Positions 6,728-19,963 of a stretch of 22,249 nucleotides of DNA are shown one piece after another (position 1 is the first letter of the stretch; the number at the start of each line of letters is the position of its first letter). A model generated the notes under the pieces. The model did no database searches. It saw only the letters and a program-made list of their open reading frames with translations, and was not told the origin of the DNA. The DNA is from a virus (Duplodnaviria; Heunggongvirae; Uroviricota; Caudoviricetes). The stretch spans positions 1 through 22,249 of IMG/VR virus record IMGVR_UViG_2585427751_000008; one strand, given 5' to 3'. The position numbers were made by a program, and so were the translations under genes.

Positions 6728-7150
6728 TCAGAAAAGCCGGGGCTGCGTGCGCTCCTGATGCAGGCGACGCTGGTTGCGGATAACGGAGTAAATCTGCGTC
6801 TCTGACATCTGGTAATGGCGGCGCAGGGTTTCAATTTTTTCACCCTGGCTCCAGCGGGAAAAAATCTCATTATTGCGCAGTTCGGTGAAAAGGGATTCAC
6901 CGACCGGGAGATAATAACCACGCCCGCCCATGTACCCGGCCTGTGCGGCCGCAACCTTACGGGCAAGCATTCCCGCCTGAGCAGATTCAATCCCCTGACG
7001 GTGCAGTTCAGCACTGATCACATCAACCAGGTCACGCAGCGTGCCGGGCCAGTTCTTTTTCAGCTCATCATCAGGAATATCATCCAGACGGTCAATCAGC
7101 GCGTGCAGCTGTTCGCTGTCACCAAACATGCTCATCTGTGTTTCAGCCAT
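6728..7150 (-). CDS. Mor/C-family transcriptional activator (middle/late gene activator)
   Basis: 140 aa with the C-terminal pattern of Mu Mor/C proteins (GRGYYLP…NNEIFSRW…RHYQMSETQIYSVIR). Located between the GemA-like gene and the endolysin, as mor/C are in Mu. Only one family member is present. Confidence 0.7.
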   Translation of the reverse strand: MAETQMSMFGDSEQLHALIDRLDDIPDDELKKNWPGTLRDLVDVISAELHRQGIESAQAGMLARKVAAAQAGYMGGRGYYLPVGESLFTELRNNEIFSRWSQGEKIETLRRHYQMSETQIYSVIRNQRRLHQERTQPRLF

Positions 7151-7182: not shown

Positions 7183-7214
7183 TTTAAAATAAAAATCCCG
7201 CGCTGTGGCGGGAT
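7183..7214 (-). terminator. Intrinsic terminator between early operon and Mor/C gene
   Basis: Inverted repeat ATCCCGC (7195-7201) / GCGGGAT (7208-7214) with a 6-nt loop. On the minus strand the stem is followed by a U-rich run (complement of 7183-7194). Confidence 0.5.
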
Positions 7215-7220
7215 TTGGGG

Positions 7221-7730
7221 TTAAAAAGGGGAGGATTCTTCATACAGCCTGCAAACGCGCTCATAACTCATCACTGTACGCACTGACATCCCCAGCACAT
7301 CCAGCATCTTGCGACGGTGCCAGCGTTTGAGACACTCCAGCACATCCGAGGCCAGTGCGGGGTGTTGCTCCAGCCACTGCCAGTTAGCCACACCTTCGCC
7401 ACCGTTCTGCGCGGCCGTCTGCGACTTCACCCAGCGGTTAAGGGCCGTTTCCCCGCCATCAGCGATAAAGCCCTGCCGGTGCATTACCTTCCAGATGGCG
7501 CGAATTTTGGCGGTCACCGTACCCGGTTTTAAGGCCCGGTTAACCGGTTTCTGACGCACTTTAAAACCGCGTTTTTTGAAAACATCCAGCACGCGGGATA
7601 ACTCATCCGGTGACATATCCCGGCAACTGGATTTGCCGGTGGCTGCCAGCAGAACGAATGTATAGGTTTCATCATCCAGGGCAAGCTCGCGCTTTGCCAC
7701 ATGAATGGCGGATATCAGTTTCCCTCTCAT
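7221..7730 (-). CDS. GemA-like early protein (Mu gp16 family, DUF1018)
   Basis: 169 aa. N-terminal MRGKLISAIHVAKRELALDDETY resembles the GemA N-terminus. Immediately upstream of the Mor/C gene as in Mu. Confidence 0.6.
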   Translation of the reverse strand: MRGKLISAIHVAKRELALDDETYTFVLLAATGKSSCRDMSPDELSRVLDVFKKRGFKVRQKPVNRALKPGTVTAKIRAIWKVMHRQGFIADGGETALNRWVKSQTAAQNGGEGVANWQWLEQHPALASDVLECLKRWHRRKMLDVLGMSVRTVMSYERVCRLYEESSPF

Positions 7731-8023
7731 GCTGTATCAACACTCCTGCTGATATGATAGATATTATTTTCCCGATCGAGCTGAACCCGATACTCCGGAG
7801 GAATCACAAAAATATTAAAACCATCAACAGTTTTTATTCTTGAGTAGTATTCCCCCTTATGATATCTGGCAAGTGCATTAATCAGAGAAGCCGCCGCCAG
7901 CCCAATCAGGTATTTTTTATGAAAAATACTGATAACTTTCCGGCACAGCCATCGTGTAATGACGAATGCACCGAAAAACGATGTGATATATAAACACCAG
8001 AACAACTGCGAACTACTGTCCAT
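7727..8023 (-). CDS. Hypothetical membrane-anchored protein (cassette gene 4)
   Basis: 98 aa. N-terminal hydrophobic helix LFWCLYITSFFGAFVITRWL then a soluble domain. ATGA overlap with the GemA-like start. AT-rich codon composition. Confidence 0.4.
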   Translation of the reverse strand: MDSSSQLFWCLYITSFFGAFVITRWLCRKVISIFHKKYLIGLAAASLINALARYHKGEYYSRIKTVDGFNIFVIPPEYRVQLDRENNIYHISRSVDTA

Positions 8024-8210
8024 TATCTTTCTCCTTATTCAGTCTTCTGCGGCATTCGGCACAGTCATCAGGGCTTTCAAATGTATCCGGCTCGCGATTA
8101 TGAGCCAGATATAACCACCGCCCACATATACTGATATTTTCACCTGTTTTAAAAAAATGATGCTTCTTAGCCATCAATGGCCGCGCCCATCCAGCGGGTA
8201 GACTATTCAT
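8013..8210 (-). CDS. Hypothetical small Cys/His-containing protein (cassette gene 3)
   Basis: 65 aa with ICGRW and DDCAEC plus several His residues, so possibly a small metal-binding fold. Overlaps both neighbours. Confidence 0.35.
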   Translation of the reverse strand: MNSLPAGWARPLMAKKHHFFKTGENISICGRWLYLAHNREPDTFESPDDCAECRRRLNKEKDNGQ

Positions 8211-8577
8211 TAGCTTTATCCTCCATGCTGGACAGAATCATATGTATTAATGTCGGGCGTGGAGATATACGCATTTCATTAAGCGTCTGAAGGGCAGCAA
8301 CAGCAGCCATTTTATCGGTGCCTCTGGCAATTTCTGCAAGAGAATGCACAATCCATAACGGACTTAACGCTACGGCTGAATCCAGAATCATGTCATCCAT
8401 AATAATTTCTGGCACATCCCGTTTGTCACATTCTTTATCCATAAAAGAAACGATTTTTTCCGCATCTTCCGGTTTCATACCTCCGGCGATAAGAATTTTA
8501 CGATATTCATAAGACGTTCTTAATTCAATGCTCATATTCATCTCCTGTAACTCTGACAAGGACGTGATTTTTCTCAT
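8203..8577 (-). CDS. Hypothetical soluble acidic protein (cassette gene 2)
   Basis: 124 aa, no recognisable motif. ATGA overlap with the upstream ORF. Confidence 0.4.
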   Translation of the reverse strand: MRKITSLSELQEMNMSIELRTSYEYRKILIAGGMKPEDAEKIVSFMDKECDKRDVPEIIMDDMILDSAVALSPLWIVHSLAEIARGTDKMAAVAALQTLNEMRISPRPTLIHMILSSMEDKANE

Positions 8578-8759
8578 TTACGCCTCCCGGAAATACGAAT
8601 GTATATACCGATGAGAAAATCCATAATAAACAGGAAGAGCGACATCCTGATAAAGAACCAAATGTCAGGCATAATGGACAGGTTTCCTGTAATCGCAAAT
8701 ATAAAACCAGTCCCCCACACTGGAACGATAATTGCGAAAAATACAAGTCTCTTTATCAT
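8574..8759 (-). CDS. Small two-helix membrane protein (cassette gene 1)
   Basis: 61 aa with two hydrophobic segments (LVFFAIIVPVWGTGFIFAI and FFIRMSLFLFIMDFLIGIYI) and a basic C-terminus. ATGA overlap with the upstream ORF. Confidence 0.4.
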   Translation of the reverse strand: MIKRLVFFAIIVPVWGTGFIFAITGNLSIMPDIWFFIRMSLFLFIMDFLIGIYIRISGRRK

Positions 8760-9307
8760 GGCGTTAACTCCCGTAATACAGCGTCCTCGGCGGTCCGTCG
8801 ACGGTAATAAACAGCGTGAGCAGAATGTTCAGATATGCCAAACTTTTCGCCAATTTCCCGGAATGACAGACGGCGAGGGTAATCGGAATCCCGTAGTGCA
8901 CGTATAAGACGAACATCCTCATCAGATATACGTGTGCCGGGGCGTAACTCACCGCACTTTGTTAATCCGGCACCAATCATTCCTGCGCGGCACCTGACAG
9001 AGTCTTTATTACGTCCGAGATAATCCCCCATTTGCTGGCAGGTCATTGTCCGGGCATTTTTTCGGATAAATTTATCTTCATCAGGTGTAAATCGCGGTCG
9101 TTTATATTTCAGCAACTCCGGGTATGTACTGCGCAATACGCCAGTCCGGTTATATACGGCCCAGACACTTCTTTTTATTCTGGCGGCAATATCCTTAACC
9201 GGGGTGGAGGAATAAAGCGCAATCAGCAGCGCATCTTCTTCAGGTGTCCACGGGCGGACATGAGCAGGTGCACGACCTTTTCGCCCCATGGGTTGTAATT
9301 TCATCAT
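8756..9307 (-). CDS. Hypothetical protein with three Myb/SANT-like repeats (putative DNA-binding)
   Basis: 183 aa. Three repeats of a W/F-T/S-P-E/D-E-D pattern (WTPEEDALLIAL…, FTPDEDKFIRKN…, ISDEDVRLIRAL…) about 50 residues apart, each followed by a basic helix-like segment. Confidence 0.45.
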   Translation of the reverse strand: MMKLQPMGRKGRAPAHVRPWTPEEDALLIALYSSTPVKDIAARIKRSVWAVYNRTGVLRSTYPELLKYKRPRFTPDEDKFIRKNARTMTCQQMGDYLGRNKDSVRCRAGMIGAGLTKCGELRPGTRISDEDVRLIRALRDSDYPRRLSFREIGEKFGISEHSAHAVYYRRRTAEDAVLRELTP

Positions 9308-9310
9308 GCA

Positions 9311-9826
9311 TCACCCCCTGACTCGCTTTTCAGCAGCATAAAACTCATCAGACAGAATTTCGGTCATTTTCTGATTTGCGGGTTTTACACCGCACTGAAG
9401 ATAAATCACATCGTCAACGCAGAACCACTCCACAGGGCCATACAGGATTGCTGAGAAATCAATGCCCAGCCAGAACAACAGGGCATCGGTTCTGGCATAC
9501 GTGACGGGCGAATATTCACGCCACAGACTGTTCAGTTCGTCAGAGGCAGTGCGCAGGGCTTTGGGAATGCGCGATGTGCGCGGCGTGCAGCTCCAGCCAT
9601 TCGACGCAGTCGGTTTTCGCCATAAATCACGATGAAAAGGATATTTGTCATTCGTAAAACGCAGCCCCTTAAAACAAAAACCGCTGATACCGGATACAAA
9701 TACCGACCGGCACTCAACATTCAGCACGGCCTCAAGGCGTTTTGCCTCATCCTTAACTTGCTGGCAGTCCTGCTGATATTTTTGCCACGCAGCCAGCGCG
9801 GAAGGGTTCGATGTTTTAAAGAACAT
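9311..9826 (-). CDS. Hypothetical early-region protein
   Basis: 171 aa ORF in the tightly packed early operon (1-nt overlap with the upstream gene). No motif recognised. Confidence 0.4.
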   Translation of the reverse strand: MFFKTSNPSALAAWQKYQQDCQQVKDEAKRLEAVLNVECRSVFVSGISGFCFKGLRFTNDKYPFHRDLWRKPTASNGWSCTPRTSRIPKALRTASDELNSLWREYSPVTYARTDALLFWLGIDFSAILYGPVEWFCVDDVIYLQCGVKPANQKMTEILSDEFYAAEKRVRG

Positions 9827-10359
9827 TACGCCACCTCCGCAGATATCCCGGCAGGCGCTGCCGTCCGGTCAACAATCAGGTAACGCAGAACATGTTCGGT
9901 GATATTCCAGCCGCTTAAACCGCAGATAATGGTCCCCAGGCGAATGTCGATATACGCCATCACAAACTGGGGCACACCTTCTTTCATTGCCTGCTCATCA
10001 ACTTCAGCCACCACATAAACGGTTTCACAGGTCAGAACGCCCTGCGCAAATTCCCACGCCATCGACGGAATATCATGCCCTTCAACCCACGGCAGGGATT
10101 TTCTGAAGCTGCACCACTGAACATCATCAGCCACAGACTCCTGGCGGCATTTGCGACGAACCGGCTGTACCGGGCGGGGACGCGGAATATCATAAAAACC
10201 GTTACATTCTGTCAGCACACCGGCATCAACCGCATCACGCAGAAAATAGACCATCGAGGATGGCGGCATATTCATTCTTTGAGCCAGAACGCCGCAGGTC
10301 AGACGCCCGTAAATGCTCAGCCAGTTTTTAACCCCTTCAAGCACTTTTGCATCTATCAT
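9826..10359 (-). CDS. Hypothetical early-region protein, possible N-terminal winged-helix domain
   Basis: 177 aa. The N-terminal ~50 aa (…LTCGVLAQRMNMPPSSMVYFLRDAVDAGVL) looks like a winged-helix DNA-binding fold. Weak assignment. Confidence 0.35.
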   Translation of the reverse strand: MIDAKVLEGVKNWLSIYGRLTCGVLAQRMNMPPSSMVYFLRDAVDAGVLTECNGFYDIPRPRPVQPVRRKCRQESVADDVQWCSFRKSLPWVEGHDIPSMAWEFAQGVLTCETVYVVAEVDEQAMKEGVPQFVMAYIDIRLGTIICGLSGWNITEHVLRYLIVDRTAAPAGISAEVA

Positions 10360-10362
10360 GAA

Positions 10363-10905
10363 TTATTCCTCCGTCAGCGCCACATATTCAGAATGTTTAA
10401 TTTCCTGACATTCTTCAGGAATACGCCCGTTTATTTCCCTGCCATAAGCACCTACTTTAAACACCACGCACAGGGCATCACGGGAGAGAGACGGGGTCCA
10501 CCAGGAGTCTGTGTTAAACATGGAGGGCATTCTCATTACCCCCAGCTTTTCACAGAGCCAGACAAGGAAATCAGGTCGCTTTCTTAAATCGCGTTCAGCG
10601 GCTTCAACCATTGTGGCAATCGCCGGTCCTTCAGGGCATGACTCATCAGGTCTGGCTATAAAGCACTGTCCGCTACCGATAAAAGCCACATCATCGCGCT
10701 TACGCCAGCCCGCAGGCAGAGCACCGGCAAAATAAAACTCACTGATTCTGTCCATGGCGAACGGCTTTAAGCGCAATCCGGCAGCGCCTGTATTTTTCAG
10801 TAACGTCCGAAGAATACTGTTGCGTAGCGGTAAAACAGTCTGTTGATATTTGGTGAAATATTTATTTGTCTGTGCTCTGTCTAATTTGAAATAAAAATAT
10901 GCCAT
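10363..10905 (-). CDS. Hypothetical early-region protein
   Basis: 180 aa ORF directly downstream of gam in the early operon. No motif recognised. Confidence 0.4.
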   Translation of the reverse strand: MAYFYFKLDRAQTNKYFTKYQQTVLPLRNSILRTLLKNTGAAGLRLKPFAMDRISEFYFAGALPAGWRKRDDVAFIGSGQCFIARPDESCPEGPAIATMVEAAERDLRKRPDFLVWLCEKLGVMRMPSMFNTDSWWTPSLSRDALCVVFKVGAYGREINGRIPEECQEIKHSEYVALTEE

Positions 10906-11002: not shown

Positions 11003-11533
11003 TTATTTATTCAGTCCGGCGTCCTGTTCAAAAGGCTCGACAGAAAAACTTTCAGCGCCTTTATTCACCTTAATACCGGCAATACCCTTTACCGCATCCG
11101 GTTCCGCCAGAATGGCTTGCTTATTCACTTCCTCTTTCGTGCGGATGAAACGCTCAAGCCCCATACGGCGCAGCATTTCAATCACACCTTCCACATCACG
11201 GCTGACGCTGCATGATGGCTTTTCCAGCCGCCATGACACCGTTCCGGTTGTCAGATTGGCAGTTTTGGTTTCGCCACCGTTCGTCAGCTCATCGCGGTTG
11301 GTTTTGCACCAGTCATGAATCCCCTTAAAAAGCACTTTGATTTCTTTTTTAAGGTTTTCAATCTGCGGCGTATAACGGGCGGTGATTTCTGCCACTTCAT
11401 CATTCATTGCCGTTTCCAGGCGCAGCGCCTCTCGCTGCATATCCCCAAAGCGACGGATATCGCGACTGACTTCTTCCCGGGTCTGCGGTGCCGCCTCGGC
11501 TGCGGCCTTTAATTTTGTAACGCGTTTAGCCAT
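11003..11533 (-). CDS. gam: Host-nuclease inhibitor Gam (Mu Gam family)
   Basis: 176 aa. Close match to recalled Mu Gam sequence, e.g. GDMQREALRLETAMNDEVAEI, NRDELTNGGETKTANLTTGTVSWR, LERFIRTKEEVNKQAIL, SVEPFEQDAG. Confidence 0.9.
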   Translation of the reverse strand: MAKRVTKLKAAAEAAPQTREEVSRDIRRFGDMQREALRLETAMNDEVAEITARYTPQIENLKKEIKVLFKGIHDWCKTNRDELTNGGETKTANLTTGTVSWRLEKPSCSVSRDVEGVIEMLRRMGLERFIRTKEEVNKQAILAEPDAVKGIAGIKVNKGAESFSVEPFEQDAGLNK

Positions 11534-11544
11534 TTTGTTTTTCC

Positions 11545-11838
11545 TTATTGCAGTGTGCCTGATGCTTTATGCACGCGGTGGCGTTTAATGATGGCATCCG
11601 CCCCAAAAGCCTGTACAGATGCCTGAAATTCCGCTGAGAGAAACTGAATAATTGCAGGACTGTGATACTGGAGAATACTTGCATAAACGTCACAGAGTGA
11701 CGTCGGGCTGTTATCCGTATCACGTTCTGTTTTCACATCCACTCCAATCTTTTCATGCACTTCAACACAGTCATTGCCTGCCAACTTTTCGTCATGCGAA
11801 ACATGATTAAATTCAAAAATAACGCGTACTTTGCTCAT
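11545..11838 (-). CDS. Hypothetical small protein, paralogue of the adjacent upstream ORF
   Basis: 97 aa from ATG at 11836-11838. N-terminus MSKVRVIFEFNHV parallels MSKVVRIIFEYKEHV of the neighbour. Confidence 0.4.
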   Translation of the reverse strand: MSKVRVIFEFNHVSHDEKLAGNDCVEVHEKIGVDVKTERDTDNSPTSLCDVYASILQYHSPAIIQFLSAEFQASVQAFGADAIIKRHRVHKASGTLQ

Positions 11839-11842
11839 GGAA

Positions 11843-12115
11843 TTACCCCTGCTGATTAAATTCATTACCTTTAATAACCCCGGAACGCATGCTCATATCT
11901 TTCATGAGCGCACTGGCTTTCATTGCCACAAGTTCAGCAAAGTCTCTGCTTTCCGCGAGCATAACCACCCCAAAAATCATGGCGGGTCCATCACCTTTCT
12001 GCTTTATCCCGGTTGAACGTATGTCCAGACTTACCCCCATGCGCACTGTTCCATCAGGGTTTTTATGGATAACGTGCTCCTTGTATTCGAAAATAATGCG
12101 TACGACTTTACTCAT
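11843..12115 (-). CDS. Hypothetical small protein, paralogue of the adjacent downstream ORF
   Basis: 90 aa. N-terminal similarity to the neighbouring ORF indicates a tandem duplication. Confidence 0.4.
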   Translation of the reverse strand: MSKVVRIIFEYKEHVIHKNPDGTVRMGVSLDIRSTGIKQKGDGPAMIFGVVMLAESRDFAELVAMKASALMKDMSMRSGVIKGNEFNQQG

Positions 12116-12363
12116 CCTCTGGTCCTCGTTCTGTTTGGATAACTGACCCGGCGTCTGACCTCACGGCAGAACCGAATCATGGCATTAAAGGCTTCTTCCT
12201 CCGTCACCGCTTCCGGTATCACCATTCGTGTGCGGTCATTAAATTCAAAAAGTAAATCGCCACATTCTTTATTTTCGGCCAGTGAAATCACCTTCACGTT
12301 ATCGAAATTAACCAGGTAAAAGCGTCCGTAAATATCAGGAATATTAAATACCGCCATAATCAC
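12112..12363 (-). CDS. Hypothetical small protein immediately downstream of B
   Basis: 83 aa ORF whose start overlaps the B stop codon. Position corresponds to the kil region of Mu, but no sequence similarity is claimed. Confidence 0.35.
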   Translation of the reverse strand: MIMAVFNIPDIYGRFYLVNFDNVKVISLAENKECGDLLFEFNDRTRMVIPEAVTEEEAFNAMIRFCREVRRRVSYPNRTRTRG

Positions 12364-13292
12364 ACCTGTGAGAGTAATTCAGGGTTGGTATAAACCTCTT
12401 TAAAGGCCGCATTAATATGTTTTTCTGTCAGCGCCGCGCCTTCACCGCTGGCGGTGAGCCACGCCTGGTTAAGCGTATGTGTCAGAACGCGTAACGCTCC
12501 CGGTTTTTCAGCGATAGCCTGCATGACGGCCAGCTCGGCCTCACCACTGATACCCCATGCCCTGGCAATGGCCAGCACATCCGCCTTTTTAGCCTTGCGA
12601 AGTTGTTTTGTACGGGCAAGACGACTGAACAGGCGCGATAAGTCATCAACGGCGCGGCGTCCACCCTTAAACAGTCCGCGCGGGTTACCAATAAGCACCA
12701 TCCCGATCCCCGTGGCGTCCTGGATTGCACGCAGTTGTTCCAGACCGTCAATACCCAGATGATCCGCCTCATCCACAATCACCAGTCCACGCGTTCCCGT
12801 CAGGCGACGGCGGATGGCGCGGGATAACGCCCCCTTGTTCGCGCGGGTGTAATCAATCCCCAGCGCATCGGCCAGCTCCAGCAGACACTCCGTGACGCTG
12901 GAGTGCGCGGGTGACAGGGTGATCATCCAGGTGTTTGGTTGCTCCTGGCAGTAATTACGGGCGGTGGCCGTTTTACCCACACCCGGTACGCCCACAATGA
13001 CGTTAATACAGCCCATCAGGCGAACCGCCTGAAACAGTGCGCGCAGCTCCTGGACTGTCTGCGTTTCCACAAACTGCGGCGGTTCCGGCAGTGCGCTTTG
13101 TTTATTCCAGTTCTCATACCAGGAACGCAGGGAAGCAGCCACAGCGGCGTTATCGCCTTTATATTTCCCCTTGCGGAAAGCCGATAATGTGCCGTCGGAA
13201 ATTCCCGCCTCTCTGGCGATGGCATACTGCGTCAGTACGCCGCCATCAATAAGTTCATCAATGGTCTTGATTACATCGTTAATATCAGTCAT
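12360..13292 (-). CDS. B: Transposition ATPase B (MuB-like AAA+ protein)
   Basis: 310 aa. N-terminal HTH-like region, Walker A GVPGVGKT, Walker B LVIVDEAD. Size and position downstream of A match MuB. Confidence 0.9.
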   Translation of the reverse strand: MTDINDVIKTIDELIDGGVLTQYAIAREAGISDGTLSAFRKGKYKGDNAAVAASLRSWYENWNKQSALPEPPQFVETQTVQELRALFQAVRLMGCINVIVGVPGVGKTATARNYCQEQPNTWMITLSPAHSSVTECLLELADALGIDYTRANKGALSRAIRRRLTGTRGLVIVDEADHLGIDGLEQLRAIQDATGIGMVLIGNPRGLFKGGRRAVDDLSRLFSRLARTKQLRKAKKADVLAIARAWGISGEAELAVMQAIAEKPGALRVLTHTLNQAWLTASGEGAALTEKHINAAFKEVYTNPELLSQV

Positions 13293-13327: not shown

Positions 13328-13364
13328 AATAACCTGAGTCGCCGCTCGGGTTATTTTTTTATTT
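13328..13364 (+). terminator. Intrinsic-terminator-like hairpin in the A-B intergenic region, oriented antisense to the transposase operon
   Basis: Stem AATAACCTGAG (13328-13338) pairs with CTCGGGTTATT (13345-13355), 6-nt loop, then a T-run on the plus strand (13356-13364). The minus-strand downstream sequence is not U-rich. Confidence 0.35.
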
Positions 13365-15454
13365 CAGGCCAGTGGATCACTTTCTTTTAATTTTGCTTCG
13401 AGCAGTTGCAATCCCCGCTGGAAATTACGCTCGTATTCTTCATCAGGTTCATCGTCAGCGACCGGTTGCTGAACGGTCACCGTATTACCCACAGGGCGGT
13501 ATATGTTTTCCAGCCATGGCTCCTGCGGCTTGTGCTCCAGCACGTTGACAACCTCATCCTCGGCATCACGGATTTTTTCCTCTGCGCGTTTACGCATACC
13601 TTTAAGGCGCTGTTGCTGTTTGTAGTATTCCGCGCTGACCGGGAAGGCTTCGCGTTTATTGCCGTCCCATACCGCCTCGCAAATCACGCTGCCATCCGGG
13701 CGACGAACGGTAATTCGTTCGGCATCATGAATGTCATAGCTGATAAGCACCTTGCGGCCATGCTCATCACGCAGCTCGGGCGCGTAGTAAATATTATTCA
13801 GCCAGCGTATTTCACAGCGTCTTACAGGGCGCTCCACCATCGGCCGGAACATGTCCCGCAATTCCACATCGGACAGCCATTCAATTTCCGTATCCTCTTC
13901 TGCCAGGCGTTTTTTTCTGAACTCCGCCGGGCTGTAATGCTTGCCGTTCGGCTTCACCGGTAATTCATCGTGCGGCCGGTTGTTGTACCACTCAACACCG
14001 TCACGAATGGCATCAATCAGTTCAGACCAGGACGGTAAATCACGCATCGCTGACTGCTGCCGGGCGTTCAGCCGTTTGCCCTGTTGCAGGGCAGTAAATG
14101 CCGAGCGTAAATCGCGGTTGGTTTTACGTAACGTCTCGCGATCTGCACCTTTCCCGAAATAGGTGCGGTATCTGCGGGCTATGCGCATCGGTAATGTGCG
14201 GTTAAGCCGTTCGATAATGCCCCGTCCCTGCGGGTTACCGGCAATTCCGGTCGGGTGATTAATCCCCAGTCGCGGCAGTATCCCCACAATCTCTTTATCC
14301 AGGATGTCGGCCGTTTCCCCGGAGCCGTTATCCGAGTAATACAGAAACGGTTTGCCGTGATAGCGAATACCGTGCTGTATGGCGCCGGCTACGGCGAAAA
14401 CATTTTCAGCCAGGTCAAGGCTCCAGCCCACCACAAAGCGCGTGCCACCGTCGATAACAAAGGTCACTTCCGGTGCAAATGGCCGCCCGTGAACCGGGTG
14501 CCTGCATTTCAGCTTCATGCCGTGACCGTCACCAATCCAGACATAATTAACCGGCATTTTTGACCAGTCGCGGCGCGTGAATCCCTCAAGCTGGCGGTAT
14601 TCACTGCCGGTCACCCGGCCTTTTTGTTTCACCACTTCCGGCAATTTTTTCATTGCGCGGCGAATAGTGTCATAAGAGGGCATGATATCGAGCATATAAG
14701 GCTCATCAGCGTGCCGGTGCTGCCATTCGGCGACAAAATCCTCGTAAGCCTCGGTCATTGGTCGGCCGTTTGACTGGCGATACTGCGCCAGAAATTCGGG
14801 CAGCCAGTTAATATCTTCGGCTTTTATTTCCTGGCGTTTACCCGGTGCCAGTAAAAGCAGGCGTTCAGCGGCGTTCTGTGCCTTGTTAAAGGCCGCAATC
14901 CAGCGTTTCAGCGTGATTTCACTCAACGCGCGGCGGTTTCCCTTTTTGGCGTTCGCTGTCTCAACCATTGCCACAATGCGCTCGTCCAGTTGTGAGCGTG
15001 ACAGACGGTCAACAATAAACCGGATAGCTTTAGCGCAGCTGAAACCGGGTTGTTGCGCGAATTTCAGCACCTCGCTGACAATCGCGATTCGTGCATCAGC
15101 CACCTGCCGCTGGTTTTCAGTCAGGGCATTGAGGCGTTCGACCATCAGTTGTGGTGAACCGCGATATGCCTCCACCACATCAACCACGTCAGGTGAGCGT
15201 CTGGCCTTTGTCACCACCGGAGCCGGTGATTCGTCGGCTTTTTGCGTCATCAGTTGCAGGGCGTAGCGTTCACGCAATGCCTGCTGCGTCACTTCAGGTA
15301 AACAGTCGATGCTGTATTCAGTTGCTTTAGAGCCTGAGCGACGACGGGAACAACAGCTTTTCCCTTGTGCGTAACGTTGTAATGCCTGGCGAATACCTTT
15401 TGTTGTAGCAGGCATTCCGGGCGCGCCAATCAGTTCTTTTGCAATGACATACAT
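13364..15454 (-). CDS. A: DDE transposase A (MuA family)
   Basis: 696 aa. Catalytic-core motifs in MuA-like order and spacing: WIGDGH, YYSDNGS, NPQGRGIIERLNRT. Followed by B and preceded by a Ner-like gene. Confidence 0.9.
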   Translation of the reverse strand: MYVIAKELIGAPGMPATTKGIRQALQRYAQGKSCCSRRRSGSKATEYSIDCLPEVTQQALRERYALQLMTQKADESPAPVVTKARRSPDVVDVVEAYRGSPQLMVERLNALTENQRQVADARIAIVSEVLKFAQQPGFSCAKAIRFIVDRLSRSQLDERIVAMVETANAKKGNRRALSEITLKRWIAAFNKAQNAAERLLLLAPGKRQEIKAEDINWLPEFLAQYRQSNGRPMTEAYEDFVAEWQHRHADEPYMLDIMPSYDTIRRAMKKLPEVVKQKGRVTGSEYRQLEGFTRRDWSKMPVNYVWIGDGHGMKLKCRHPVHGRPFAPEVTFVIDGGTRFVVGWSLDLAENVFAVAGAIQHGIRYHGKPFLYYSDNGSGETADILDKEIVGILPRLGINHPTGIAGNPQGRGIIERLNRTLPMRIARRYRTYFGKGADRETLRKTNRDLRSAFTALQQGKRLNARQQSAMRDLPSWSELIDAIRDGVEWYNNRPHDELPVKPNGKHYSPAEFRKKRLAEEDTEIEWLSDVELRDMFRPMVERPVRRCEIRWLNNIYYAPELRDEHGRKVLISYDIHDAERITVRRPDGSVICEAVWDGNKREAFPVSAEYYKQQQRLKGMRKRAEEKIRDAEDEVVNVLEHKPQEPWLENIYRPVGNTVTVQQPVADDEPDEEYERNFQRGLQLLEAKLKESDPLA

Positions 15455-15893: not shown

Positions 15894-16424
15894 ATGTCGC
15901 AGGGAAAAGAACCTGTTATTGAACGTATTGGGATGCTTACAAAACGCTATCCTTCAAGAAGTGCAGCTGCCAGAGCGTGGGGAATTAATATCAACACATT
16001 AAACAGCTATTTCAAGGGAGGGCAAACACAACCAGCCCCAAGAGAAAGCATTCTTATACGAATTTCTAAAAGTGAAGGTGTTAGTCTTGAGTGGCTTAAA
16101 GAGGGCAAGGGAGAATCACCAAAAGACATTGGTATTTCTGGTGATTTTGGTTGTTCTGGTGATAAGGGAGATCAGCTTACACAGATGCTTTCATTCCTCA
16201 CGAAAGACGAACGAGAACAACTAACCAATCTCCTTGCTCGCAAAGGTGTAGAGACTGTTCTGACACTACTGGATAAAGAAAACCAGGATTTATTACAACT
16301 AGAGGGCAGGAAGCGCCTGGCTGCTTTGATGATTGTGGATATGCCTGACGATAGTGTCAGAGAGATTTTGGAAAAAACCGAGACAAGTAGGCAATCAAAT
16401 CCGGTAGAATCTAAAGCGGGTTAG
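15894..16424 (+). CDS. Phage repressor (c-type, HTH DNA-binding domain plus coiled-coil C-terminus)
   Basis: 176 aa from ATG at 15894, preceded by AAGAGG at 15881-15886. The track ORF starting at 15801 adds an implausible hydrophobic extension. HTH-like segment SRSAAARAWGININTLNSYF…VSLEWLKEGKG. Transcribed toward the phage end, divergent from ner. Confidence 0.65.
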   Translation: MSQGKEPVIERIGMLTKRYPSRSAAARAWGININTLNSYFKGGQTQPAPRESILIRISKSEGVSLEWLKEGKGESPKDIGISGDFGCSGDKGDQLTQMLSFLTKDEREQLTNLLARKGVETVLTLLDKENQDLLQLEGRKRLAALMIVDMPDDSVREILEKTETSRQSNPVESKAG

Positions 16425-16501
16425 TTTGGCGAGACTGGCCCGTATTTTAGTTACCATATAGATTTAATGAAGTTTTAAACGCTTTAAAAGGTTTAGATCA
16501 C

Positions 16502-16669
16502 AGTATCAAAAGTTTTGCCGATTTTAGAATAAACGATTAATTATTGCACAATCGGTATCAAATAGACTTTTCGCGCCCAGATTGAAATCACCTGTTTTAT
16601 TTCAGTATCTTACAGGTGATTTCACCTCCTTTCACTAAAACCCTTGTCGGTATCAAATGATTCACCTGG
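16502..16669. repeat. Terminal repeats of the prophage end (candidate transposase-binding sites)
   Basis: Perfect 12-bp direct repeat TCGGTATCAAAT at 16552-16563 and 16647-16658, with a related AGTATCAAAAG at 16502-16512. Motif TGATT(T)CACCT at 16617-16627 and 16658-16668, with an inverted copy GAAATCACCTG at 16584-16594. Resembles the Mu end-site consensus with its TTCAC core. Confidence 0.5.
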
Positions 16670-16675
16670 TTATAA

Positions 16676-17179
16676 GTGCTGAAGAAATATGGTTACACCG
16701 GTAAAGACGATAAAGTTTATTTGCAATGTTTTGATGCTGATGAGCTGAAGCGTATTAAGAATGAGCTGGAACCCAAAATGGGCATGGAGCTCAATCTGGT
16801 ACAGCTGATTGCCTATACCGACTGGAATGAAACGCAGCAGAAACAGCCGGATGGAAGCTGGGTTAATTACAACTACGACTGGATGTTTAAGCCGGGTGCC
16901 ATGAAACAGGTGGCGGAATATGCAGATGGTATTGGTCCGGATTACCATATGTTGATTGAGGAGACATCGCAGCCGGGTAATATCAAACTCACTGGCATGG
17001 TGCAAGATGCTCAGCAGAATAAACTGGTAGTGCATCCTTATACCGTGCGGTCAGATAAACTGCCTGAATACACTCCTGATGTGAATCAGTTATATGATGC
17101 TCTGTATAACAAAGCGGGTGTAAATGGGCTGTTTACTGATTTCCCTGATAAGGCAGTAAAATTTCTTAATAAAGAGTAA
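16676..17179 (+). pseudogene. glpQ: glpQ 3' fragment (glycerophosphodiester phosphodiesterase, C-terminal ~167 codons) truncated by prophage insertion
   Basis: Translation (V)LKKYGYTGKDDKVYLQCFDADELKRIKNELEPKMGMELNLVQLIAYTDW…FPDKAVKFLNKE matches the C-terminal half of E. coli GlpQ as recalled. An in-frame TAA at 16673-16675 and prophage end repeats lie immediately upstream; there is no signal peptide or N-terminal half. Confidence 0.85.
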
Positions 17180-17186
17180 TGTTACT

Positions 17187-17213
17187 GCAGGATGGCGTTC
17201 ATGCGCCATCCTG
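17187..17213 (+). terminator. Stem-loop downstream of glpQ (probable terminator)
   Basis: Inverted repeat CAGGATGGCG (17188-17197) / CGCCATCCTG (17204-17213) with a 6-nt loop, 8 nt after the glpQ stop. The downstream T-run is weak. Confidence 0.4.
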
Positions 17214-17220
17214 TCTCATA

Positions 17221-17466
17221 TCAAATTTTTCCAATCGCCACTAATTGTTCCATGCACATTTGTAGTAAAAACAGTGGACTGCCTTCTACCGGCTTTTCTT
17301 TAGCCAGCAACGAAATCTGTCGATAGAAAGTTGGTTCGAGAGGAACGGAACACAATTCACCTGCAATGCTTTTCAGCGTTAACTCTGGTTGTAAGGCGAT
17401 GCCTAATCCCTGTCGAATAAAATTTATCGCTGTATCCGCCTGATTAAATTCACATTTTATCTGCTG
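17221..17466 (-). pseudogene. LysR-family regulator C-terminal fragment (yfaH-like pseudogene)
   Basis: Minus-strand translation reads …QQIKCEFNQADTAINFIRQGLGIALQPELTLKSIAGELCSVPLEPTFYRQISLLAKEKPVEGSPLFLLQMCMEQLVAIGKI-stop. This is LysR effector-domain-like, with no start codon or N-terminal HTH. Confidence 0.45.
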
Positions 17467-17641
17467 GGCGCACTATTAGTGGTAGTGGCTGGTGGAATCT
17501 ATGCGCTGCAAATGAAGGGTAAAAGCGGTGTCAAGCTAGTAGTGGCAAAAGAAATTCATTAATACGACACGTTTCATTAAGATTTTCCTCAGGTAACCAC
17601 CTATAGTCATTGTCGTTAATAAAAATGACAGGCGATAGGGT

Positions 17642-18292
17642 ATGGCAGTTTCAGCAAAGTACGACGAATTTAATCACTGGTGGGCAACAGAGGGCGACTG
17701 GGTTGAAGAGCCTAACTATCGCCGTAATGGTATGAGCGGGGTGCAATGCGTCGAGCGCAACGGCAAAAAGCTGTATGTAAAGCGCATGACGCATCATCTG
17801 TTTCATTCCGTACGTTATCCGTTCGGCCGACCAACGATTGTCCGTGAGGTTGCGGTAATTAAAGAACTGGAACGGGCCGGTGTCATCGTGCCGAAGATCG
17901 TTTTTGGTGAAGCGGTGAAAATTGAGGGTGAATGGCGAGCGTTGCTGGTGACTGAAGATATGGCGGGGGTCATCAGCATTGCTGACTGGTATGCCCAGCA
18001 TGCAGTATCGCCTTATTCTGACGAAGTACGGCAAGCCATGTTGAAAGCAGTGGCGCTGGCGTTTAAGAAAATGCATAGCATTAATCGTCAGCATGGCTGT
18101 TGTTATGTTCGCCATATCTATGTGAAAACAGAAGGTAATGCAGAAGCTGGTTTTCTTGACCTGGAGAAGAGTCGTCGCCGCTTGCGTCGCGATAAAGCGA
18201 TTAATCATGACTTCCGCCAGCTGGAAAAATATCTGGAGCCAATCCCCAAAGCGGACTGGGAGCAGGTGAAAGCGTATTACTACGCCATGTAA
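17642..18292 (+). CDS. inaA: InaA (acid-inducible Kdo/WaaP-family kinase-like protein)
   Basis: 216 aa ORF. Translation matches E. coli InaA as recalled; conserved neighbourhood with yfaE, nrdB and nrdA. Confidence 0.85.
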   Translation: MAVSAKYDEFNHWWATEGDWVEEPNYRRNGMSGVQCVERNGKKLYVKRMTHHLFHSVRYPFGRPTIVREVAVIKELERAGVIVPKIVFGEAVKIEGEWRALLVTEDMAGVISIADWYAQHAVSPYSDEVRQAMLKAVALAFKKMHSINRQHGCCYVRHIYVKTEGNAEAGFLDLEKSRRRLRRDKAINHDFRQLEKYLEPIPKADWEQVKAYYYAM

Positions 18293-18295
18293 TCG

Positions 18296-18333
18296 TTGTA
18301 GGCCAGATAAGACGCATAAGCGTTGTATCTGGC
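18296..18333. repeat. REP-like palindromic element between convergent inaA and yfaE
   Basis: GCCAGATA (18302-18309) and TATCTGGC (18326-18333) form an inverted repeat. The sequence resembles a diverged copy of the REP units seen at 19780-19950. Confidence 0.4.
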
Positions 18334-18345
18334 ACTACAACCAAT

Positions 18346-18600
18346 TCACATCTCGATTTCAATATCGCCTTTTGCCCGGCAACAACAGGGCAAAATTTCC
18401 CCCGGCTGAATAAAGGCTAACGGTTCGGCAATCCAGTCAACTTGACCTGCAACCAGGCGTGTGCGACAGGAGCCGCAGTAACCTTCGCGACACTGGTACT
18501 CAACCGCCACATTGTGGGATTCCAGCGCCGCCAGAAGGGAAGGGTGTTCATCCTGGCACAGCAGTTGTGTGCCAGTGATGCGCAGGGTAACGCGGGCCAT
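18346..18600 (-). CDS. yfaE: YfaE 2Fe-2S ferredoxin (ribonucleotide reductase cofactor maintenance)
   Basis: 84 aa with the Cys pattern of plant-type ferredoxins (CREGYCGSC … CCC). Start codon overlaps the nrdB stop by 1 nt. Confidence 0.9.
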   Translation of the reverse strand: MARVTLRITGTQLLCQDEHPSLLAALESHNVAVEYQCREGYCGSCRTRLVAGQVDWIAEPLAFIQPGEILPCCCRAKGDIEIEM

Positions 18601-19730
18601 CAGAGCTGGAAGTTACTCAAATCGTCGGTGTCCACTTCCGAGTCAATCTGCCCGACCAGATAAGAACTGACTTCCACTTCCTGCGGAGCAACCTGCACGT
18701 TATCAGACACCAGCCAAGTGTTGATCCACGGGATCGGGTTGGAGCGCGTCTGGAACGGCAGATCCAAACCGACTGCCTGCATACGGATATTGGTGATGTA
18801 TTCAACGTACTGGCAGAGAATGTCTTTATTCAGACCAATCATCGAACCGTCGCGGAACAGATAATCCGCCCAGTCTTTCTCCTGTTGAGCTGCCTGAACA
18901 AACAGGTCATAGCACTCCTGCTTACACTCTTCGGCAATTTCCGCCATCTCAGGATCGTCCGCGCCGCTGCGCAGCAGATTCAGCATATGCTGGGTGCCGG
19001 TCAGGTGCAGGGCTTCGTCGCGGGCAATCAGGCGAATAATTTTGGCGTTGCCTTCCATCAATTCGCGTTCTGCAAATGCGAAGGAACAAGCAAAGCTGAC
19101 GTAGAAACGAATCGCTTCCAGCGCGTTAACGCTCATCAGGCAGAGATACAGTTTTTTCTTCAGCTCGCGCAGGCTAACGGTCACAGTTTTACCGTTAACG
19201 GTGTGGGTACCTTCGCCCAGCAGATGCCAGTAGCTGGTCATTTCGATCAGCTCATCGTAATAGCTGGAGATCCCTTCCGCACGTTTCTGGATCTGCTCGT
19301 TGGTGACGATATCGTCAAACACAACAGACGGATCGTTAACGATATTACGAATGATATGAGTATAGGAACGGGAATGAATCGTTTCTGAGAACGCCCAGGT
19401 TTCGACCCAGGTTTCCAGTTCCGGAATAGAAATAAGCGGCAATAGCGCCACGTTCGGGCTACGACCCTGAATGGAATCCAGCAGCGTCTGATATTTCAGG
19501 TTGCTGATAAAGATGTGTTTTTCGTGCTCCGGCAGCGCCTGGTAATCTATACGGTCGCGGGAGACGTCAACTTCTTCCGGACGCCAGAAGAAAGAGAGCT
19601 GCTTTTCGATCAGCTTTTCGAAGATGTCATATTTTTGCTGATCGTAGCGAGCCACGTTGACCGGCTGACCAAAGAACATCGGTTCTTTGAGCTGATCATT
19701 TTTCGTCTGTGAAAAGGTGGTATATGCCAT
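18600..19730 (-). CDS. nrdB: Ribonucleoside-diphosphate reductase 1, beta subunit
   Basis: 376 aa from ATG at 19728-19730 ([22 protein letters not shown]…). The first 77 residues of the longer track ORF run through REP repeats and are not part of the gene. Confidence 0.95.
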
Positions 19731-19744
19731 GAGTGTGTCCTGTT

Positions 19745-19960
<216 letters not shown>

Positions 19961-19963
19961 ATA

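Follow-up and report, generated by a model that had tools for sequence, protein, structure and literature searches.

A variable slot of small genes upstream of GemA in an Escherichia coli Mu-like prophage

Introduction

Phages encode small early proteins, such as Mu Kil and Gam, DMS3 Aqs1 and D3112 Tip, whose binding partners are proteins of the host, and the small early genes of Mu-like phages are still largely uncharacterised. The question we address here is whether four such genes, found side by side in an Escherichia coli Mu-like prophage, make up one system or are independent genes that share a position. They were noticed in a 22,249-nucleotide stretch of viral DNA (IMG/VR record IMGVR_UViG_2585427751_000008, referred to here as the window), where a sequence-only reading had proposed an AT-rich four-gene cassette at positions 7727–8759 with two small membrane proteins, possibly a superinfection exclusion, abortive infection or host-takeover module.

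Several published systems provide context for this locus. Small accessory ORFs of Pseudomonas Mu-like phages occupy plasticity regions at fixed positions, the majority of them in the left arm, and are often accompanied by G+C deviations (PMC4378225), and gene 10 in the early operon of the Mu-like beetrevirus Fc02 has exclusion activity (PMC9936078). The small membrane peptide YIP, encoded in the early region of a Pbunavirus, binds host YfiN (PMC8085984), and ORF14 (gp14) of SfMu has been called unique and of unknown function (PMC4406740).

The locus and its boundaries

The four small, coupled ORFs between a Myb-like gene and a GemA-like gene are present exactly as first described (Table 1). 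The sequence at the junctions between the Myb-like gene stop and the w61 start, the w61 stop and the start of the 124-amino acid (aa) ORF, and the w98 stop and the GemA start is in each case ATGA, the 124-aa ORF overlaps w65 by 8 nt and w65 overlaps w98 by 11 nt, and a GGAG-type Shine–Dalgarno sequence lies upstream of every start.

Table 1. Features of the slot and its surroundings in the window.
Feature	Position	Strand	Remarks
w61	8574–8759	minus	ORF, 61 aa
Second ORF	8203–8577 (124 aa); w110 form 8203–8535	minus	Conserved product 110 aa
w65	8013–8210	minus	ORF, 65 aa
w98	7727–8023	minus	ORF, 98 aa
D5-like/Myb-like HTH gene, 183 aa	8756–9307	minus	Upstream boundary of slot
GemA (Mu gp16 family)	7221–7730	minus	Downstream boundary; Pfam GemA match
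Mu gp12 homologue	9311–9826	minus	53% identity; conserved core gene upstream of slot
Terminator-like hairpin	7193–7216	minus	9-bp stem then T-run, directly after GemA; pattern match

GemA was identified by its Pfam match (E = 3.6e-29) and shares 46% identity with Mu gp16. The gene at the other boundary is named SANT/Myb-like by PGAP and matches PHROG 323 (D5-like, E = 2.5e-53), with a Pfam Myb match slightly under the gathering score, and is itself allelic, with 71–74% or 94–100% identity among relatives. The prophage keeps the homologues of MuA, MuB, Gam, gp11, gp12, GemA and Mor in the Mu order, and on the basis of the gp12 homologue and the GemA match the slot is positionally equivalent to the semi-essential region gp13–gp15 of Mu. 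In all of the E. coli relatives examined it has the gp12 homologue and the Myb-like gene on one side and GemA on the other, a place where Mu and SfMu carry non-homologous genes.

The two regions are alike in their position, in encoding small proteins and in their lowered G+C, and one of the Mu products, gp13, is likewise small and Cys-rich. However, the window proteins show no detectable similarity to those of Mu (BLASTP: w65 and gp13, E = 0.70; the 124-aa form and gp14, E = 0.26; w98 and gp15, no alignment). Unlike the window genes, Mu gp15 lies on the opposite strand, the Mu slot is without the predicted membrane proteins found here, and the window has an additional D5/Myb-like gene before the slot.

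Base composition and selection

The sequence-only reading had put the G+C content at about 41%, clearly under that of the flanking phage genes, and our measurement agrees with this: G+C is 0.409 for 7727–8759 compared with a mean of 0.538 (sd 0.049) for the prophage. When 1033-nt windows were taken in 10-nt steps across the prophage part of the window only, every sampled window was above this value, making the slot the lowest-GC stretch of about 1 kb. The difference is also seen in GC3, which is 0.35–0.47 in the four genes and about 0.60–0.62 in GemA, Mor and MuB. It should be noted that Mu gp13–gp15 also have a lower G+C than their neighbours (0.46–0.48 vs 0.53–0.55).

All four ORFs are under purifying selection, with dN/dS values of 0.05–0.33 in those comparisons having enough substitutions, a range like that of GemA, gp12 and the Myb-like gene, and on this ground we regard them as genuine genes. 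An antisense gene like Mu gp15 was considered for the plus-strand ORFs (e.g. 8599–8907) and rejected, as the substitutions fit the minus-strand frames, and no Rfam or ARAGORN match to an RNA element or tRNA was found in the AT-rich stretch.

The four predicted proteins

Searches covering all four proteins returned nothing significant in Pfam or NCBIfam, and no PADLOC-DB 2.0 family at E ≤ 1 for these or the Myb-like protein. No Pfam or NCBIfam match to known exclusion proteins of the T4 Imm, HK97 gp15 or P22 SieA type was obtained, the matching PHROGs are of unannotated function, and PDB sequence and profile searches gave only weak leads (w65 with the RNF4 RING and w110 with the RIPK2 CARD). 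A functional study of the four proteins was not found in the literature by RefSeq accession or by topic. The original descriptions of the products as membrane, acidic, Cys/His and anchored types agree with our analysis, but the 124 aa given for the second needs to be corrected as its conserved form is 110 aa.

w61 contains two hydrophobic 19-mers (Kyte–Doolittle values of 2.4 and 2.0) and is very basic (pI 11.5), from which a two-helix membrane peptide is predicted, with positive termini that would favour an N-in/C-in hairpin. It has no match in Pfam, PHROG, NCBIfam or PADLOC, and the sole match in the phage collection is within the Mu-like insert of LC727881. We found w61 only in E. coli and Shigella Mu-like prophages, in which its presence is polymorphic, and its dN/dS is 0.13–0.33.

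The second protein is a member of PHROG 1988, the SfMu gp14 family (E = 1.9e-43), with the alignment beginning at residue 15 of the 124-aa ORF. PGAP calls the 110-aa form with a start at 8535, a common E. coli recombination breakpoint falls at window position 8548 between M1 and M15 of the longer ORF, relatives without w61 upstream start the protein at MS or MMS, and in one lineage the 14-aa extension is frameshifted with the 110-aa ORF intact. Taken together, these observations and the PHROG 1988 start indicate that the conserved second product is 110 aa, referred to here as w110; the 14-aa N-terminal extension (start 8577) is optional and arises where w61 is directly upstream.

w110 has no transmembrane segment by hydropathy, and is predicted to be all-helical with six helices and to carry the conserved motif SPxWI...G.DK.AAVAAL. 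Alignment with SfMu gp14 and IMG/VR homologues identified L57, S58, W61, I62, D74, V79, A81 and L82 as invariant. The homologues in SfMu and in Yersinia Mu-like phages share 33–36% identity with w110, the motif (as LSPxWI...G.DK.AAVAAL) and the slot upstream of GemA; SfMu gp14 differs in being flanked by Mu gp13 and gp14 homologues rather than by w61 and w65. The family is small, with just eight cluster representatives among 1.84 billion proteins, and its dN/dS is 0.06–0.19. An AlphaFold2 model produced from the family alignment (pLDDT 52.7) gave no Foldseek match to PDB at E ≤ 0.001, and this model, like that of w65, is of too low quality to support structural conclusions. We rejected a death-fold or CARD assignment, since the RIPK2 CARD match (E = 0.39) was gone with a broader family profile and Foldseek gave no support, and also rejected a paralogous relationship with the N-terminus of GemA, proposed because of a shared Y-R-x-x-L...G motif (hhalign probability 1%).

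The N-terminal part of w98 contains a single segment of moderate hydrophobicity (residues 7–23), and positive charges come directly after it; the protein is accordingly predicted to be membrane-anchored at its N-terminus, with its C-terminal domain in the cytoplasm. It matches PHROG 17269 (E = 8.5e-66) and forms only six clusters, of which all source-named ones are from E. coli; we found it only in E. coli and Shigella. Two deep alleles of equal length occur in E. coli, and these are 83% identical over residues 1–36 and only 32% over residues 37–98, with a between-allele dN/dS of 0.13–0.19 at saturated dS.

The distributions of w110 and w98 bear on the reading in which the four genes are lineage-specific, quasi-core helpers of Mu-type replication or regulation, with w110 for example working with GemA. 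Members of the w110 family occur in Mu-like phages only (40/40 IMG/VR loci), always 0–2 genes upstream of GemA, and in E. coli the translational coupling of w98 to GemA is constant, as might be expected of such helpers. However, neither Mu nor the M18 prophage has w110, no D108 homologue is reported in the SfMu paper (PMC4406740), the profile comparison of w110 with GemA noted above was negative, and the w98 alleles are not linked to the GemA alleles, and we therefore regard this reading as extremely unlikely.

w65 has three Cys and three His residues and is a member of PHROG 2358, a broad phage early-gene family (E = 4.7e-34). H18, C29, C50 and C53 are invariant in an alignment extending from E. 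coli to ORF85 of Pseudomonas phage 14-1, giving the conserved ligand pattern H-x10-C-x20-C-x2-C, and these four residues are a candidate zinc site. We considered a zinc ribbon or treble-clef mini-protein, with the ligands on a beta-hairpin knuckle and at the N-terminus of a helix; the AlphaFold2 model has strands followed by a helix starting near C50, at a pLDDT of only 58.8, and no Foldseek match to PDB at E ≤ 0.001, and a Pfam DUF6011 match was not significant (E = 0.15). The C-terminal CxxC helix resembled the last RING knuckle of RNF4, but this lead was weak, its E = 0.006 having been obtained with a construct of tandem domains, and values for single RING domains being approximately 0.7–1.1.

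Among the genera with w65 homologues are Salmonella, Citrobacter and Buttiauxella. Phages of Klebsiella and Pantoea have others, as do 54 Pseudomonas phage records, of which we inspected one (Pbunavirus 14-1 ORF85), and the dN/dS of w65 is 0.05–0.25. Most of the contexts are not Mu-like and some are in strictly virulent phages. No homologue of 16 other window-prophage proteins used as probes was found at 37 of the 52 w65 IMG/VR loci, and the five of these that were inspected are lambdoid nin/ea-like regions with w65 beside O/P, DnaB, Ead/Ea22, DUF551 and Lar.

Another reading is that w110 and/or w65 is an individual early lytic inhibitor of a defence or host factor (an immune system or nuclease), with the other genes being unrelated neighbours. 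Both proteins are small and early and w110 is acidic (pI 4.9); the w65 family is strongly conserved (about 60–70% identical across the Enterobacteriaceae) with its invariant His/Cys3 residues, and is encoded beside Lar, DNA methyltransferases and dATP/dGTP pyrophosphohydrolase, in temperate as well as virulent phages, within their early or accessory regions. The slot also shares its operon with Gam, a known nuclease inhibitor, and anti-CRISPR genes have been found in the accessory regions of Pseudomonas Mu-like phages (PMC4378225). Set against this, there is no likeness to known anti-defence proteins in Pfam, NCBIfam or PDB, and the neighbours of w65 are simply what the variable early region of any given phage type contains. 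On balance we consider this explanation possible but unlikely.

Mosaicism among related prophages

The content of the slot varies even between close relatives: prophages with core genes about 90% identical show at least six architectures. The order w61–w110–w65–w98a of the window is shared with L001, and in L009 the last gene is replaced by the other allele (w61–w110–w65–w98b). L008 and L010 are without w61 and have F103–F116–w110–w65 followed by w98a or w98b, and in L004 three other genes separate w61 and w110 (w61–F75–F103–F130–w110–w65–w98b). L011 has F109–F122 and a w65 remnant before w98a, and L076–84 have a variant of w110 and neither w65 nor w98; w61 is missing from L011 and L076–84 as well. 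The full arrangement of the window was found in only 4/40 E. coli records sampled at even spacing from the 222 that matched.

Within this variation, w110 and w65 are adjacent in all of the E. coli architectures having w65, and can be deleted in relatives as a pair, and may possibly be a two-gene functional pair.

These architectures bear directly on the view that the four genes, or the membrane pair and its soluble partners, constitute one system, such as an exclusion or abortive infection system protecting the lysogen. This would fit well with the tight translational coupling of the genes, with the combination of two membrane and two soluble products, and with the exact four-protein set being common (each exact sequence is found on more than 600 contigs). 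In the distant Mu-like phage L089, a small two-helix membrane protein overlaps the start of the w110 homologue, an arrangement which could hint at a partnership between a membrane peptide and w110. However, the L089 protein has 70 aa, the opposite charge topology and no sequence similarity to w61, and as this was the only comparable case we rejected a conserved pairing. The four genes assort independently in close relatives and differ in phyletic range, with w65 found alone in lambdoid and virulent phages and w110 occurring in other Mu-like phages in which w61, w65 and w98 are all missing, no PADLOC model matches them, and the set is not repeated in unrelated prophages or defence islands. With the additional evidence of their location in a repressed early operon with no promoter excess (see below), we consider a single system to be very unlikely, and the four-gene defence or exclusion cassette of the sequence-only reading appears to have been a false lead, replaced here by the map of a recombination-prone accessory slot.

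The accessory nature of the slot, in comparison, is upheld by our results. It is unlike Mu gp13–gp15, varies in content in close relatives and is deviant in composition, and the four proteins did not prove to be conserved core early proteins with a base composition similar to that of their neighbours.

Expression context

Within the slot we identified six promoter-like sites where 5.2 were expected, none of them placed upstream of the block, using a crude consensus search which weak constitutive expression in lysogens could escape. There is no terminator-like excess within the slot either, and the only strong hairpin is the one after GemA, which from its sequence is the probable 3' end of an early transcript carrying the four genes. 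By this pattern scan, the block does not look like a classical lambdoid moron with its own promoter and terminator, given also the ATGA overlaps with the neighbouring genes and the lack of a promoter-like site upstream of it.

The position of the genes deep in a repressor-controlled early operon with no promoter excess weakens the earlier suggestion of a lysogen-protecting function such as superinfection exclusion or abortive infection, as does the occurrence of the w65 family in strictly virulent phages. A role in host takeover or anti-defence during lytic growth is possible.

A probable accessory slot for lytic-phase genes

We conclude that 7727–8759 is probably a variable accessory slot, or plasticity region, in which the repressed early operon holds, at its 3' end, independent genes for host interaction in the lytic phase. 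The four genes are exchanged as at least three independent modules, w61, w110 with w65, and w98. Their transcription would most likely occur only after release from the c repressor, in the last part of an early transcript ending at the post-GemA hairpin, with translation coupled from gene to gene. Acting alone during transposition and lytic growth, each product would bind or modulate some component of the host or of a competitor and be dispensable; the site of action would be the inner membrane for w61 and w98 and the cytoplasm for the other two.

The slot most resembles the plasticity regions of the Pseudomonas D3112/DMS3/PaMx73 group of Mu-like phages (PMC4378225). In both cases a fixed position between core genes in the early (left) arm is occupied by small ORFs (about 60–110 codons) of deviant G+C which are present, absent or replaced in close relatives, and most of which are restricted to the phage group with a few shared more widely. 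The slot described here differs in belonging to an E. coli prophage and in having no sequence in common with the Pseudomonas accessory ORFs. It can also be likened to the wider class of hyperplastic or moron regions of temperate phages, but differs from the lambdoid moron in that the genes are embedded and translationally coupled in the early operon, with no sign of a promoter or terminator of their own.

By analogy, we infer that the mode of action may be akin to that of Mu Kil and Gam, DMS3 Aqs1, D3112 Tip and Pbunavirus YIP. Like these and Fc02 gene 10, the slot genes are small, ORFan-like and located in an early operon, and YIP is also a membrane peptide; they differ in having no sequence similarity, and are comparable only in their kind and in where they are encoded.

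About 4% of complete E. coli genomes carry a prophage of the type having this slot, many STEC and O157 strains among them. The two w98 alleles and the on/off pattern of w61 provide natural isogenic contrasts for investigating the lytic-phase host interactions of Mu-like phages. Because of the breadth of its family, which is common to temperate and virulent phages of two bacterial orders, w65 is a sensible candidate for functional screens of early proteins.

A more speculative and rather improbable proposal is that PHROG 2358 represents a widespread His/Cys3 zinc mini-protein used early against one conserved host target or defence, to which, in this prophage, the polymorphic membrane proteins w61 and w98 would contribute exclusion or envelope modification in the lytic phase, with the w98 alleles reflecting an arms race with a variable partner. 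The phages included in this proposal are the Mu-like and lambdoid temperate phages of the Enterobacteriaceae and the virulent Pbunaviruses of Pseudomonas.

The slot holds four real genes of low G+C content

The window covers the early (left) end of a Mu-like prophage of Escherichia coli together with host flank, and all early genes lie on the minus strand in the same order as in Mu. The four overlapping ORFs of 61, 124, 65 and 98 aa described in the sequence-only reading occupy the slot between the D5/Myb-like gene and GemA, and we confirmed their lengths and overlaps (ATGA, ATGA, 8 nt and 11 nt, then ATGA into GemA), with a GGAG-type ribosome-binding site at each start. The low G+C content was also borne out: the slot has a G+C of 0.409, compared with a mean of 0.538 (sd 0.049) for the prophage part of the window, where it is the lowest 1033-nt stretch, and the GC3 of the four genes is 0.35–0.47 versus approximately 0.60–0.62 in GemA, Mor and MuB. 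All four coding frames are real, with dN/dS of 0.05–0.33 against five related prophages wherever substitutions suffice, the same range as for GemA, gp12 and Myb. Low G+C also marks two ORFs of 106 and 90 aa located between MuB and Gam (0.43–0.45), as well as w180 (0.47), and therefore the early operon may hold further accessory slots.

Positions of features in the window and in related Mu-like prophage or phage loci (L numbers)
Feature	Position	Strand	Remark
Mor-family activator	6728–7150	−	followed by lysozyme gene
Hairpin	7193–7216	−	directly after GemA
GemA	7221–7730	−
Slot, four ORFs	7727–8759	−	between D5/Myb-like gene and GemA
w98 (allele w98a)	7727–8023	−
w65	8013–8210	−
w110	8203–8535	−	124-aa ORF from 8577
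w61	8574–8759	−
D5/Myb-like gene	8756–9307	−
gp12 homologue	9311–9826	−	53% identity to Mu gp12
gp11 homologue	9826–10359	−
w180	10363–10905	−
Gam	11003–11533	−
106-aa and 90-aa ORFs	11545–12115	−
MuB	12360–13292	−
MuA	13364–15454	−
Host flank	16400–22249
InaA-like Kdo/WaaP-family kinase	17642–18292	+	host flank
nrdB	18600–19961	−	host flank
naRNA4/CssrE Rfam match	19837–19907	+	nrdA–nrdB junction, host flank; 76 bits, above gathering score
nrdA	19964–22249	−	host flank
w98 allele, L004	3501–3797
w98 allele, L009	2813–3109
Alternative slot genes, L004	2073–2973
Alternative slot genes, L008	3825–4501
Alternative slot genes, L011	3313–4007
136-aa gene, L080	4271–4681	−
70-aa protein gene, L089	3799–4011

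Slot content varies among close relatives

Several complete E. coli chromosomes, among them those of the FORC_029/043/069 strains and NCCP15648, match window positions 7600–8900 at 100% identity, and of 5,426 complete genomes of this species, 221 carry parts of the cassette. The NCCP15648 prophage is inserted in a fimbrial usher gene next to elfG, unlike that of the window, and shares only 92–96% identity with the latter in its gp11, gp12 and w180 proteins; the same cassette is therefore carried by mosaic prophages inserted at different places.

The proposal of one undescribed four-gene system was not upheld, as relatives with core genes approximately 90% identical have at least six arrangements between the Myb-like gene and GemA, and the complete window arrangement was found in only 4/40 of an even-spaced sample from 222 matching E. 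coli records. Gene boundaries and w98 codon 36 are recurrent breakpoints, w61 variants combine with either w98 allele, and different GemA alleles accompany the w98 alleles. To judge from these comparisons, the four genes each have their own history and are not one cassette, while the suggestion that they are accessory and horizontally exchanged is supported by the variable content and low G+C.

Slot arrangements (F numbers, alternative slot genes named by aa length)
Arrangement	Source
w61–w110–w65–w98a	window, L001
w61–w110–w65–w98b	L009
F103–F116–w110–w65–w98a or w98b	L008, L010
w61–F75–F103–F130–w110–w65–w98b	L004, Mu-like insert in Stx2c phage
F109–F122–(w65 remnant)–w98a	L011, strain M18
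F103–F130–(w110 variant)–(reverse-strand 136-aa gene)	L076–L084

In many Mu-like prophages of E. coli the alternative genes F75, F103/109 and F116/122/130 take the place of w61 or stand inserted behind it; none of them has a match in Pfam or PADLOC, and F103 is also 83–84% conserved in more distant Mu-like phages (L085–L088).

The four protein families

The product types hold as described (w61 with two hydrophobic segments, w110 acidic, w65 rich in Cys/His and w98 with an N-terminal hydrophobic segment). Searches of the four proteins against Pfam, NCBIfam and PADLOC profiles gave no significant match, and those against PHROG gave three families, each of unknown function.

The second ORF is present, but its conserved form is a 110-aa protein starting at 8535 (w110, as annotated by PGAP) rather than the 124-aa one. 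The PHROG 1988 alignment begins at residue 15 of the longer ORF, a common recombination breakpoint lies between the two candidate starts, relatives with another upstream gene start w110 at MS/MMS, and in one lineage the 14-codon extension is frameshifted with the 110-aa ORF intact. The family is small (a search of 1.84 billion proteins gave eight cluster representatives) and all 40/40 IMG/VR loci are Mu-like phages with w110 0–2 genes upstream of GemA. A homologue with 33% identity is SfMu gp14, which had been reported as present in SfMu alone (PMC4406740). The AlphaFold2 model from a shallow alignment is of low confidence (pLDDT 52.7), usable only as a secondary structure of six helices, and Foldseek found no match in the PDB at E<=0.001. 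Weak sequence leads to the RIPK2 CARD and the GemA N-terminus did not survive. A 211-aa protein from the representative search (P0041, no Pfam match) has three tandem copies of the w110 N-terminal motif EYRKxLIxxGLxPxDxDRI, so that this motif may be a short repeat unit in its own right.

In contrast, w65 (PHROG 2358) has the opposite distribution, with 37/52 IMG/VR loci having no homologue of 16 other window-prophage proteins used as probes. The five of these examined in detail are lambdoid nin/ea-like regions with O/P or DnaB, Ead/Ea22, DUF551, DUF1627, dATP/dGTP pyrophosphohydrolase and Lar as neighbours. A Salmonella homologue stands alone before GemA and a Citrobacter one lies within a lambdoid-type (Cro/Q) early operon; phages of Klebsiella and Pantoea have others, as do 54 Pseudomonas phage records, of which one was inspected (ORF85 of Pbunavirus 14-1, among small hypothetical genes). 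Amongst the three Cys and three His of w65, H18, C29, C50 and C53 are invariant in all these homologues, which points to a candidate zinc site. The AlphaFold2 model (shallow alignment, pLDDT 58.8, low confidence) is usable only as strands followed by a C-terminal helix, with no Foldseek match in the PDB at E<=0.001. We consider this broadly distributed His/Cys3 family the part most deserving follow-up, with the natural variation in w61 and w98 in second place.

The w61 gene was found only in Mu-like prophages of E. coli/Shigella, and its product has basic termini and two segments of strong hydrophobicity. In w98, a single N-terminal segment of moderate hydrophobicity precedes a +5 stretch. The positive-inside rule alone would place both ends of a w61 hairpin in the cytoplasm and give w98 an N-out/C-in orientation, with its domain on the cytoplasmic side. 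A search of 5.8 billion sequences gave six w98 clusters, those with a named source all from E. coli. The two alleles are of equal length, with residues 1–36 (including the membrane anchor) 83% identical and residues 37–98 only 32% identical on either side of the breakpoint near codon 36, and w98b is about twice as common as w98a in the even-spaced E. coli sample. In the distant Mu-like phage L089, the w110 homologue starts within the last 11 nt of a gene for a 70-aa protein with two transmembrane helices; this protein has no sequence similarity to w61 and the opposite charge distribution.

Expression and possible role

In a pattern scan, sites resembling promoters or terminators were not in excess in the slot block, the slot genes are chained through overlapping stops and starts, and the first strong hairpin (a terminator-like 9-bp stem with T-run) directly follows GemA. 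Most economically, the slot genes would lie in the 3' part of the early transcript and be expressed only once repression is lifted, with products acting in transposition and lytic growth. With this hairpin and a single Mor/C-family activator between GemA and the lysozyme gene, where Mu has Mor, gp18–20 and then C, the middle/late switch seems to have a simpler layout than that of Mu.

An exclusion or abortive-infection system protecting the lysogen is argued against by this probable timing and by the occurrence of w65 homologues in strictly virulent phages, both of which fit small early phage proteins that bind single host or competitor targets, such as Kil and Gam of Mu, Aqs1 of DMS3 and Tip of D3112. 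Further examples are the Pbunavirus membrane peptide YIP, which binds YfiN (PMC8085984), and Fc02 gene 10, from a Mu-like phage, which excludes other phages despite its early-operon location (PMC9936078).

Comparison with known slots

The sequence-only observation holds. The closest described phenomenon to the slot is the "regions of genomic plasticity" of Pseudomonas Mu-like phages, fixed sites mostly in the left arm with small horizontally acquired accessory ORFs, where according to the authors GC deviations often accompany the variable inserts; some of these ORFs later turned out to be anti-CRISPRs (PMC4378225); the window slot agrees with these in every descriptive respect. It falls outside the definition of a classical moron, which requires its own promoter and terminator, and Mu gp13–15 have the same position but are not homologous. 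In L076–L084, where w65 and w98 are absent, the 136-aa gene that separates the w110 variant from GemA has a DUF2513 match below threshold (E=6.6e-5). It echoes the reverse-strand Mu gp15 at the same position, and such a gene could be expressed in the lysogen.
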